A DNA stretch of 64,000 bases from Shigella phage sb4, in the sequence record PQ666542; one strand, given 5' to 3'. Position numbers and translations under genes: made by a program. Each line of letters opens with the position of its first letter. Within the stretch, counting starts at the first letter, position 1. Under the pieces are notes generated by a model. The model was not told the DNA's origin. It searched no databases and saw only the letters and a program-made list of their open reading frames with translations. Shown here piece by piece: positions 770 to 1,426 of the stretch.

Positions 770-1426
770 TTGATTATGGGGCTTCGGCCCCTATTCTCGA
801 GGAAACAAGTGATTATTTCTAAGTTTGTTAAAGTGAAAATTGTACCATCAAATTTTAAACATTATCAATCAAAGGGTTATAAATTAACACCTCTTGGAGC
901 GGTTAAACATGGATTTAGGTATTATGAAATTGATGTTAAAGTTGAAGACATTAAAGGTAGTACCGCGTATGTAAAATGCCGTTGCGATAAATGTGGAATT
1001 GAATATAACCAACGCATTGGAAGAAACACTGATATTTGTCGTGATTGCCGTCATAAAGATAAAATGCGCAATAATTCATATGGTTCCGCGAATAAAGGAA
1101 AAACAGTAGAATGTATGCATGGCGTAAATCATCCAAGATGGAACCCAAATAAATCTGAAATGCGTGAATATATTTCATTGGTATATAAAGAAACTCGTAA
1201 GCATAAGAAAATTTGGTCAAAATGGCCAAATGCTGATAAAATAGGAGTGTGCGGTACAAAAGGTGCTTACCAACTTGATCATAAGGTATCTATCAAATAC
1301 GGTTTTGATAATTTAATTCCTGCTGAAATAATTGGCGGTATTAATAATTTAGAAATAATCACTTGGGAATCTAACCGAGAAAAGTCAAAAAGAAATAGTG
1401 TAGATCTTTGGGATTTACTAGAATGA
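770..1426 (+). CDS. HNH-family homing endonuclease-like ORF between genes 18 and 19 (true start probably internal, e.g. GTG near 811)
   Basis: Cys cluster CRCDKCG...CRDCRH plus HNH-like motif QLDHKVSIKYGFDN...NLEIITWESNREK; the first 20 nt of the ORF overlap a GC hairpin. Confidence 0.55.
   Translation: MIMGLRPLFSRKQVIISKFVKVKIVPSNFKHYQSKGYKLTPLGAVKHGFRYYEIDVKVEDIKGSTAYVKCRCDKCGIEYNQRIGRNTDICRDCRHKDKMRNNSYGSANKGKTVECMHGVNHPRWNPNKSEMREYISLVYKETRKHKKIWSKWPNADKIGVCGTKGAYQLDHKVSIKYGFDNLIPAEIIGGINNLEIITWESNREKSKRNSVDLWDLLE

Follow-up and report, generated by a model that had tools for sequence, protein, structure and literature searches.

A candidate free-standing homing endonuclease gene of a divergent HNH family between the tail sheath and tail tube genes of Shigella phage sb4

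The T-even phages are a model system for free-standing homing endonucleases. In this study, we analyzed a 64,000-nucleotide stretch of the genome of Shigella phage sb4 (record PQ666542; this whole stretch is referred to here as the window) and focused on an open reading frame (ORF) that separates the tail sheath gene, gene 18, from the tail tube gene, gene 19. The first 2.2 kb of the window is that of a T4-like Tequatrovirus, 98.6% identical to Shigella phage sb3 and 97.5% identical to RB3. As the initial annotation had described, the ORF comprises 218 codons on the plus strand, from TTG 770 to the TGA that ends at 1426. It lies in the intergenic spacer, outside any intron or intein, and leaves gene 18 upstream and gene 19 downstream intact. 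The 3' part of gene 18 occupies positions 2 to 769 of the plus strand (its start is upstream of the window and its TAA is at 767-769) and matches Pfam Phage_sheath_1C (7e-24) and the tail sheath family phrog_23 (1.5e-65); the last 171 residues of gp18 are 97.7% identical in amino acid sequence between the window and T4. Gene 19 follows at 1534-2025 on the plus strand (Pfam Phage_T4_gp19, 2.6e-15; phrog_45, 1.6e-63), and its product is 98% identical to T4 gp19. The counterpart of this spacer in T4 is only 116 nucleotides long, and in an alignment of the two phages, a 657-nucleotide block of the window (770-1426) replaces 9 nucleotides of T4, TACGGTGCA. The 108 nucleotides that follow (1426-1533) are 100% identical to T4, and this spacer is near-invariant across 16 phages. 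The spacer common to the window and T4 (1427-1533, plus strand) holds a hairpin, GGCCTG-TTTCGG-CAGGCC (1434-1451), TATAAATA late-promoter motifs at 1453-1460 and 1512-1519, and the ribosome-binding site of gene 19. We propose that the inserted block is probably a free-standing homing endonuclease gene cassette of a previously uncharacterized HNH family, for which we infer cleavage and homing.

The first codons of the 218-codon frame overlap a strong GC hairpin, and it had been suggested on these grounds that the true start is probably internal, possibly a GTG preceded by AGGAAA. Our results agree. The cassette leader (770-808, plus strand) contains the hairpin GGGGC-TTCG-GCCCC with a UUCG loop (778-791), a Shine-Dalgarno sequence, GAGGAAA (799-805), and the in-frame TTG 770 and ATG 776. 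GTG 809 is the best-supported start and opens a putative endonuclease ORF of 205 amino acids (809-1426, plus strand; TGA 1424-1426; phrog_5104, 3e-91). The PHROG 5104 profile leaves out the first 13 residues of the 218-residue form and matches from residue 14, the RB3 and T6 records annotate the same start, and homologues in other genera start with MII(S/T)K at GTG or ATG, in most genera checked with a hairpin and/or a promoter-like motif close upstream. In RB3, AV122, and ECO07P1 the leader is 1 nucleotide shorter, which puts TTG 770 out of frame. ATG 776, at the foot of the hairpin, is present in most copies, absent in ECO07P1, and replaced by GTG in Pu-Krd-SF2. TTG 770 and ATG 776 are probably unused as starts, with ATG 776 a possible alternative. 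The leader is the same, or differs by at most 4 nucleotides, in nine phages that represent both alleles of the cassette described below, and T4 has no such leader. No TATAAATA late promoter lies between gene 18 and the ORF in the window, and read-through from gene 18 is therefore the likely route of transcription; the gene would probably be expressed late in infection, by read-through past the hairpin. Cassettes of the Bp7 type, of L010, and of VR7 have their own TATAAATA just upstream of the ORF, and those of Roth16 and QL01 have a -10-like box and a hairpin there.

The 205-codon ORF is a real gene. Its best homologues reach E = 2e-137 and its ratio of non-synonymous to synonymous substitution rates (dN/dS) is about 0.1, so it is not a chance frame. 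It encodes a two-domain protein in which about 100 N-terminal residues with a zinc ribbon are connected by a basic, poorly modeled linker (residues 81-110) to about 100 C-terminal residues of predicted HNH type. The zinc ribbon (983-1048, plus strand) has the form CxxC-x14-CxxC and consists of C59 (983-985), C62 (992-994), C77 (1037-1039), and C80 (1046-1048). The Cys4-like cluster reported in the initial annotation is thus real, and it is conserved: C59, C62, and C77 are retained in at least 90% of 30 homologues, a set that extends down to 33% identity, and C80 is retained in most of them. Weak matches to DUF4379, a treble-clef zinc finger, were found in 9 of 31 family members (best, 8e-4). 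The zinc-ribbon domain is presumed to be the DNA-recognition domain.

The C-terminal half (residues 105-205; 1121-1423, plus strand) is predicted to be a nuclease domain that opens at a conserved G-x-N-H-P-R-W-N-P-N-K motif. In its predicted catalytic core (1277-1375, plus strand), D157-H158 (1277-1282) end strand 1, N180 (1346-1348) stands before strand 2, and N189 (1373-1375) lies in a helix; the invariant K192 (1382-1384, plus strand) is just past the core. The HNH-like His/Asn core noticed earlier is well founded in this respect, as Q155, D157, H158, S161, G165, N180, L181, W186, N189, and K192 are invariant in the 30 homologues. In a wider sample of 44 diverse C-terminal domains, taken from the 150 best of 6129 cluster representatives (E<=0.001), D157, H158, N180, N189, and K192 do not vary either. 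Many of these domains read LDHIIPI...NLQ..PW.EN..K, near the textbook DHIxP...NL..L...N/H..K. The AlphaFold model has a mean predicted local distance difference test score of 86.9, with values of 88-97 over residues 111-190. In it, strand 154-158 ends with DH, strand 181-185 is immediately preceded by N180, and helix 186-192 contains N189. The modeled order, two antiparallel strands and then a helix, is that of the beta-beta-alpha-metal layout. The best Foldseek match in the PDB is the HNH domain of Cas9, and matches in BFVD include proteins named "HNH endonuclease" (3e-6) and "Homing endonuclease" (4e-4).

Direct searches with HNH models, the check that the initial annotation had proposed, gave a different answer. 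Pfam returned no HNH match to the window protein at E up to 1 for the full ORF and the 205-residue form, or at E up to 10 for the C-terminal domain alone; NCBIfam returned none at E up to 10; and none of the curated HNH profiles PF01844, PF13395, PF13392, and PF14279 matched above its gathering score. Taken literally, no HNH domain is detected by these models, an outcome that the initial annotation had named as evidence against its own proposal. Searches of the PDB with the single sequence and with two profiles gave no informative match, the profile matches being zinc-finger and leucine-rich-repeat artifacts. PHROGs places the protein in phrog_5104, "unknown function," and no precomputed Pfam domain is present on any of the 37 homologues from the first search. 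Among the 44 diverse relatives, the most frequent Pfam matches were HNH_4 (7 of 44; best, 0.0087) and HNH (5 of 44; best, 0.0019), all of them below threshold. Alignment with hhalign places the DH and N-R-x-K-S motifs on D839/H840 and N863 of SpCas9, in a segment that we confirmed as Pfam HNH_4 (1e-17), with a pair E value of 0.0019 and a probability of only 14%. The designation as an HNH-type endonuclease is thus upheld by the motif, the AlphaFold model, Foldseek, BFVD, and sub-threshold Pfam matches in relatives, and it lacks a direct model match. It is very likely, in our view, that a divergent HNH domain of the His-Asn-Asn type makes up the C-terminal half.

The Cas9 HNH domain (HNH_4, PF13395) offers the pattern by which these residues can be read. 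As in Cas9, D-H ends strand 1 and is followed by N-x8-N-R-x-K-S with the same 9-residue Asn-to-Asn spacing. Unlike in Cas9, about 22 residues with two short helices lie between strands 1 and 2, and the family has an upstream conserved G-x-x-H-P-R-W-N-P-N-K motif and a long helix. With all Pfam scores below threshold, HNH_4 included, the relation is at the level of the superfamily only. By analogy with Cas9, D157/H158 would supply a metal ligand and the general base, N180 would be structural, and N189 would be the second metal ligand. A protein that no curated HNH model recognizes, whose final metal ligand is Asn and not His, and one copy of which has a premature stop could instead be no active nuclease at all, for example a zinc-ribbon nucleic-acid-binding protein with a degenerate HNH-like fold (such as a late-gene regulator) or a decaying remnant. 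However, the DH...N...N..K pattern is invariant in the 30 homologues and the 44 diverse domains, His-Asn-Asn is active in the Cas9 HNH domain that aligns here and is an active configuration in I-HmuI, and a dN/dS of about 0.1 argues against decay. We find such an inactive protein very improbable.

The C-terminal domain is also found elsewhere, alone or fused to other N-terminal modules. These modules are NUMOD3 (above the Pfam threshold; L034), DUF4379 (also above threshold; L016), C2H2 or other zinc ribbons (L014, L015, and L017), and the N-terminal part of DUF7487 (P0132 and P0136). In the distantly related Dickeya phage LIMEstone1, putative homing endonucleases described as "Hef-like" carry the DUF7487 module coupled to a nuclease of the Vsr/DUF559 type. 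Recognition modules that can be exchanged between different nuclease domains are a hallmark of homing endonucleases. In BFVD, proteins named DUF7487 match the C-terminal domain of the family at 8e-7. The Pfam entry itself (PF24308; 220 positions) seems to be composite: only its first ~95-120 positions match F-LimVIII of LIMEstone1, P0132, and P0136, and after the matching part these proteins continue into unrelated nuclease domains, Vsr-like or HNH-like.

Several known systems resemble the sb4 gene in part. Like T4 MobA-E and I-TevIII/I-HmuI, which are HNH-family homing endonucleases known from T-even and Bacillus phages, it is a free-standing ORF in a spacer between conserved genes and encodes an HNH-superfamily motif; like them, it is patchily distributed among close relatives, combines modular recognition and nuclease domains, and has a regulatory hairpin before the gene. 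According to the T4 review (PMC2988022), a Mob protein combines a well-defined HNH domain and a separate C-terminal region. Pfam HNH matches T4 MobE toward the N terminus (residues 21-44 of 141; 21.5 bits), whereas the window protein passes no HNH model and, unlike Mob, has a C-terminal nuclease domain and an N-terminal zinc ribbon for recognition. A relation to MobE was considered and rejected, as no similarity was detectable with the family profile (hhalign E 0.74). Hef-type homing endonucleases were assigned to a Vsr-like family by Taylor et al. (PMC3239194). The Hef-like or Vsr-like (EDxHD) enzymes, among them phage U5 Hef, I-Bth0305I, and LIMEstone1 F-LimIII, F-LimVII, F-LimVIII, and F-LimX, are likewise free-standing phage endonuclease genes, and the N-terminal DUF7487 module of F-LimVII and F-LimVIII is the one fused to the C-terminal domain of the sb4 family in P0132 and P0136. 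Their catalytic domain, however, is Vsr/DUF559-like and not HNH, and Pfam found no match to Vsr, DUF559, or MTES_1575 in the sb4 family. The position of F-LimVIII beside the LIMEstone1 tail tube gene prompted us to consider membership in the Hef family. We rejected it because F-LimVIII, a DUF7487 module with a Vsr-like domain (596 amino acids, encoded on the opposite strand), has no significant similarity to the sb4 family (hhalign E 0.056; probability, 1%), and F-LimVII does not align with the family either. F-LimVIII is a second, unrelated occupant of the gp18/gp19 spacer (HE600015.1 103128-104918; L033:8129-9919), where endonuclease genes seem to have landed repeatedly.

The small HNH nicking endonucleases Gme HNH (4h9d) and GVE2 HNH (5h0o) are single-domain proteins of ~90-100 amino acids that share 9-14% identity with the window protein over 69 aligned residues. 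In contrast, the window protein has two domains and is dispensable in most relatives. The location of the gene in the block between gene 17 (large terminase) and gene 20 (portal) invites comparison with packaging-associated HNH proteins that aid terminase, like HK97 gp74 and GVE2 HNH. The ORF does not adjoin the terminase genes, though, its two-domain product with a separate zinc ribbon is unlike the ~100-residue terminase-associated HNH proteins, and most Tequatroviruses, including T4, package normally without it. T4 gp17 has its own nuclease domain, and headful packaging requires no cos cleavage. A role in packaging is hardly credible on these grounds.

Presence or absence of the cassette varies among close relatives, as the initial annotation had suggested it might. 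A probe spanning the empty T4 junction found 501 Tequatrovirus records, of which 382 have an uninterrupted junction and ~117-119 (~118) are occupied. All seven empty sites sampled read TAA-TACGGTGCA-TTCTAAAGG, and the ends of the cassette are identical in nine of nine, so that presence and absence with identical boundaries occur among near-identical phages. The alternative outcome that had been named, an ORF that every relative retains at this position for some purpose other than nuclease activity, is not what we find. Excision by recombination between the two flanking hairpins, as in PeSL-type shuffling (PMC2839356), was considered as the origin of the empty site and rejected because the empty site contains 9 nucleotides (TACGGTGCA) that are absent from the occupied allele.

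Two alleles of the cassette coexist. Allele A is carried by the window phage, sb3, RB3, and RB5-10 (~47 records with at least 95% protein identity) and allele B by T6 and ~70 others, in which it is annotated as "gp19.1" or hypothetical. The alleles have in common the leader, the first 27 nucleotides of the ORF, and the last ~210 nucleotides, which encode the nuclease core; between these parts they are ~30-45% identical per 30-nucleotide window. Whole cassettes of A and B are 66-70% identical in nucleotide sequence and their proteins ~50% identical, within flanks that are 95-99% identical. P0012 and P0024, from another lineage, differ by a similar N-terminal swap. This arrangement, with the nuclease domain kept and the recognition domain swapped, suggests two target specificities. 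In eight of nine within-allele pairs dN/dS is 0.04-0.14, and T6 and ESh25 differ by no non-synonymous change; these substitution patterns indicate purifying selection on both alleles. Against RB3, the window has a synonymous divergence (dS) of 0.03 for the ORF and of 0.21 for gene 19; against ECO07P1, the respective values are 0.13 and 0.06. These values point to decoupled genealogies of the cassette and gene 19. The prematurely terminated copy mentioned above is the allele B copy of Escherichia phage Pu-Krd-SF2 (PQ249396.1; L025:2040-2645), in which codon 89 has changed from CAA to TAA. That record annotates the first 89 codons only and has a 2-nucleotide insertion in the downstream spacer, and the copy appears to be a pseudogene.

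Every full-length homologue whose context was checked (n = 17) lies directly downstream of gene 18. These include the ORFs of Tequatrovirus, Gaprivervirus (VR7), Dhakavirus (Bp7 and IME540), and Klebsiella phage Roth16, those of a QL01-type contig and five further IMG/VR contigs, and that of Sinorhizobium phage phiM12, whose gp18 is only ~50% identical. Where the gp18 C terminus is ~80% identical, the identity of the ORF proteins spans 37% to 64%, and the gene lineages are therefore not distributed like the phages. In a scan of bacterial and archaeal genomes, we found one relative only, in a Legionella sp. metagenome-assembled genome (NZ_JARLJR010000083.1; L034:3575-4288), where NUMOD3 is fused to the C-terminal domain of the family on a 171,991-bp contig. 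No homologues of gp18, gp19, or gp20 were found in the 8 kb around it, and the contig, which has the length of a T4-like phage genome, may be a phage contig binned into the assembly.

The strict synteny after gene 18, from Tequatrovirus to Sinorhizobium phage phiM12 and including uncultured relatives, is also what would be expected of an accessory nuclease kept for the benefit of the phage, for attack on the DNA of competitor phages or the host or for some other late function, and inherited vertically since early T4-like evolution with repeated loss. Presence and absence and the allele mosaics would then come from ordinary T-even recombination in conserved flanks. The broad drop of ORF protein identity with flank identity, the purifying selection (dN/dS, ~0.1), and the lack of further copies in the window fit such a gene, as does the finding that nucleases of homing endonucleases contribute to exclusion between T-even phages (PMC2993671). 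Exclusion and homing are, however, compatible and not mutually exclusive, and none of the PADLOC defense models matched the window protein. It is also difficult to reconcile benefit to the phage with the 76% of close relatives that lack the ORF, or simple vertical descent with two alleles of ~50% protein identity in flanks that are 95-99% identical and with protein identities of 37-64% at a gp18 C-terminal identity of ~80%. The fusions with NUMOD3, DUF4379, and the DUF7487 N-terminal part are, moreover, combinations of mobile endonucleases. We regard an accessory nuclease, the main rival to a homing endonuclease, as possible, if unlikely.

Gene 18 itself carries a further signal beside the cassette. 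A block of synonymous polymorphism at 683-721 (plus strand; codons A-R-S-I-N-Y-I-T-F/L-N-F-V-A, ARSINYITLNFVA), which lies 48-88 nucleotides upstream of the gene 18 stop and contains TATAAATT at 691-698, is the most variable 50-nucleotide bin of the whole gene among 14 Tequatroviruses, with 17 variable sites against a gene mean of 6.5 (standard deviation, 3.5) per bin. T4 and RB3 have 11 mismatches per 40 nucleotides in the block, against a gene mean of 1.0. All differences in the block are silent except for one T/Q site and a Leu-to-Phe change that is the window's own, and the peptide it encodes (PARSINYITLNFVA) is near-invariant from T4 to phiM12 and environmental relatives, its coding sequence lying 48-88 nucleotides from the cassette. 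The T4-type block is present in ~249 of 378 empty records and in 1 of 117 occupied records (sb3), at most ~8. One block is common to all four allele B phages sampled, and a different one to four of five allele A phages. This is the pattern that co-conversion, or target-site immunity beside a homing endonuclease gene, would produce, but it does not decide the matter, as set out below. In the right flank, no association with ORF status was found at sites in gene 19 among 16 Tequatroviruses. As to the amino acid change, which falls within a highly conserved INYITLNFVA motif, the window gp18 has Phe (701-709, ATA ACT TTT), and Leu stands at this position in all 15 of the other Tequatroviruses sampled. 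In gene 19 of the window, codon 3 (1540-1542) is ATA (Ile), not GTA (Val), and both replacements are unique to the window phage in the sample.

We also considered a late promoter embedded in gene 18 (ATAAATTATAT, or TATAAATT at 691-698) as an element linked to the ORF or transferred with it from one genus to another. RB3 and Klebsiella phage Roth16 share 26 identical nucleotides in the ATAAATTATAT/TATAAATT region of the gene. As specific evidence, this element was rejected because ORF-less Mosigviruses have the same codon run and other ORF carriers lack it.

Taken together, the interruption of a conserved tail-gene spacer with identical boundaries, the modular architecture, and the swapped alleles are consistent with our preferred interpretation, a homing endonuclease cassette. 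The statement of the initial annotation that the gene has the hallmarks of a free-standing homing endonuclease is supported in substance, with homing itself inferred. We speculate that, upon co-infection with an ORF-less relative such as T4, the zinc ribbon would recognize a sequence at or near the empty 18/19 junction, where the HNH domain would nick or cut. The recombination-dependent repair of T-even phages would then copy the cassette, with some flanking DNA, from the ORF-carrying genome. Carriers would be protected by the insertion itself, and perhaps also by the silent differences in gene 18 that lie 48-88 nucleotides upstream.

Several observations weigh against homing. No target-site difference consistently divides carriers from non-carriers: sb3 has the ORF together with a T4-type block, ~129 empty phages (T2, RB14, RB68, and GiZh among them) have carrier-type blocks, and the ATAAATTATAT codon run common to carrier-type blocks is present in the ORF-less Mosigviruses. 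The block pattern is not replicated across genera, and some ORF carriers elsewhere have T4-like codons. The association between block and ORF may be plain physical linkage at 48-88 nucleotides, which would serve an accessory nuclease equally well. All 17 of the full-length homologues checked are at one locus, with a divergence that roughly tracks that of the flanking genes, and a gene inherited vertically over a long time and lost repeatedly would leave the same single-locus picture. Paralogues within the seg and mob families occur at many loci; in contrast to the mob genes, the checked full-length members of the sb4 family occupy one, and no paralogue of the ORF was found within the window. 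A recent selective sweep of the cassette is unsupported, as copies of the ORF within an allele (95.5-100% identical) are about as similar to each other as their flanks are. In the literature searched, we found no paper describing this gene. For T6, Petrov et al. list a single "other HNH" gene, which may or may not be this one, and for RB3 they list none. All of the data would be accommodated most simply by a target that extends across the uninterrupted junction, or depends on it, and that the cassette destroys. We regard as rather doubtful a more elaborate scenario, in which the gene is the first experimentally tractable representative of a family and in which this large unrecognized His-Asn-Asn HNH family (6129 cluster representatives, with no Pfam model) has a full-length form locked to the 18/19 spacer, the zinc ribbon reads the PARSINYITLNFVA coding sequence, and the two alleles and the recoded T4-type block reflect an arms race between target and immunity. 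If it were true, classical crosses of T4 with T6 or with RB3 would show biased marker inheritance around genes 18 and 19.

The gene is present in the laboratory phages T6 and RB3, yet we found no description of it in the reviews and papers searched, and databases list it as "hypothetical" or "gp19.1." Its family, which numbers thousands of members, escapes routine domain searches. If the protein is an active homing enzyme, an HNH architecture with an N-terminal zinc ribbon and a C-terminal His-Asn-Asn domain would be new beside those of seg, mob, and hef; the enzyme would explain a recurrent indel in a very conserved block of tail genes; and its two naturally occurring alleles, with their recognition domains swapped, would be useful for work on the evolution of endonuclease specificity. 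The gene is unannotated, widespread, and directly testable with existing phages and simple crosses.

Some minor observations concern related records and the rest of the window. GenBank MG010123.1, "Staphylococcus phage SAJK-IND" (32 kb), has a sheath-ORF-tube region that is 98% identical to that of the window and an ORF 99.5% identical in protein; the record is probably mislabeled or contaminated. The Dhakaviruses Bp7 (L005:3769-4731) and IME540 (L006:3747-4328) have an extra hypothetical ORF of 193 amino acids between gene 19 and the portal gene. The portal gene of Bp7 is annotated in two pieces, gp20' and gp20, which may reflect another insertion or disruption in this conserved block. The T4 late-promoter motif is enriched across the window, with 21 copies against 8.8 expected, and three overlapping copies lie at 12506-12525 (TATAAATATAAATATAAATA).

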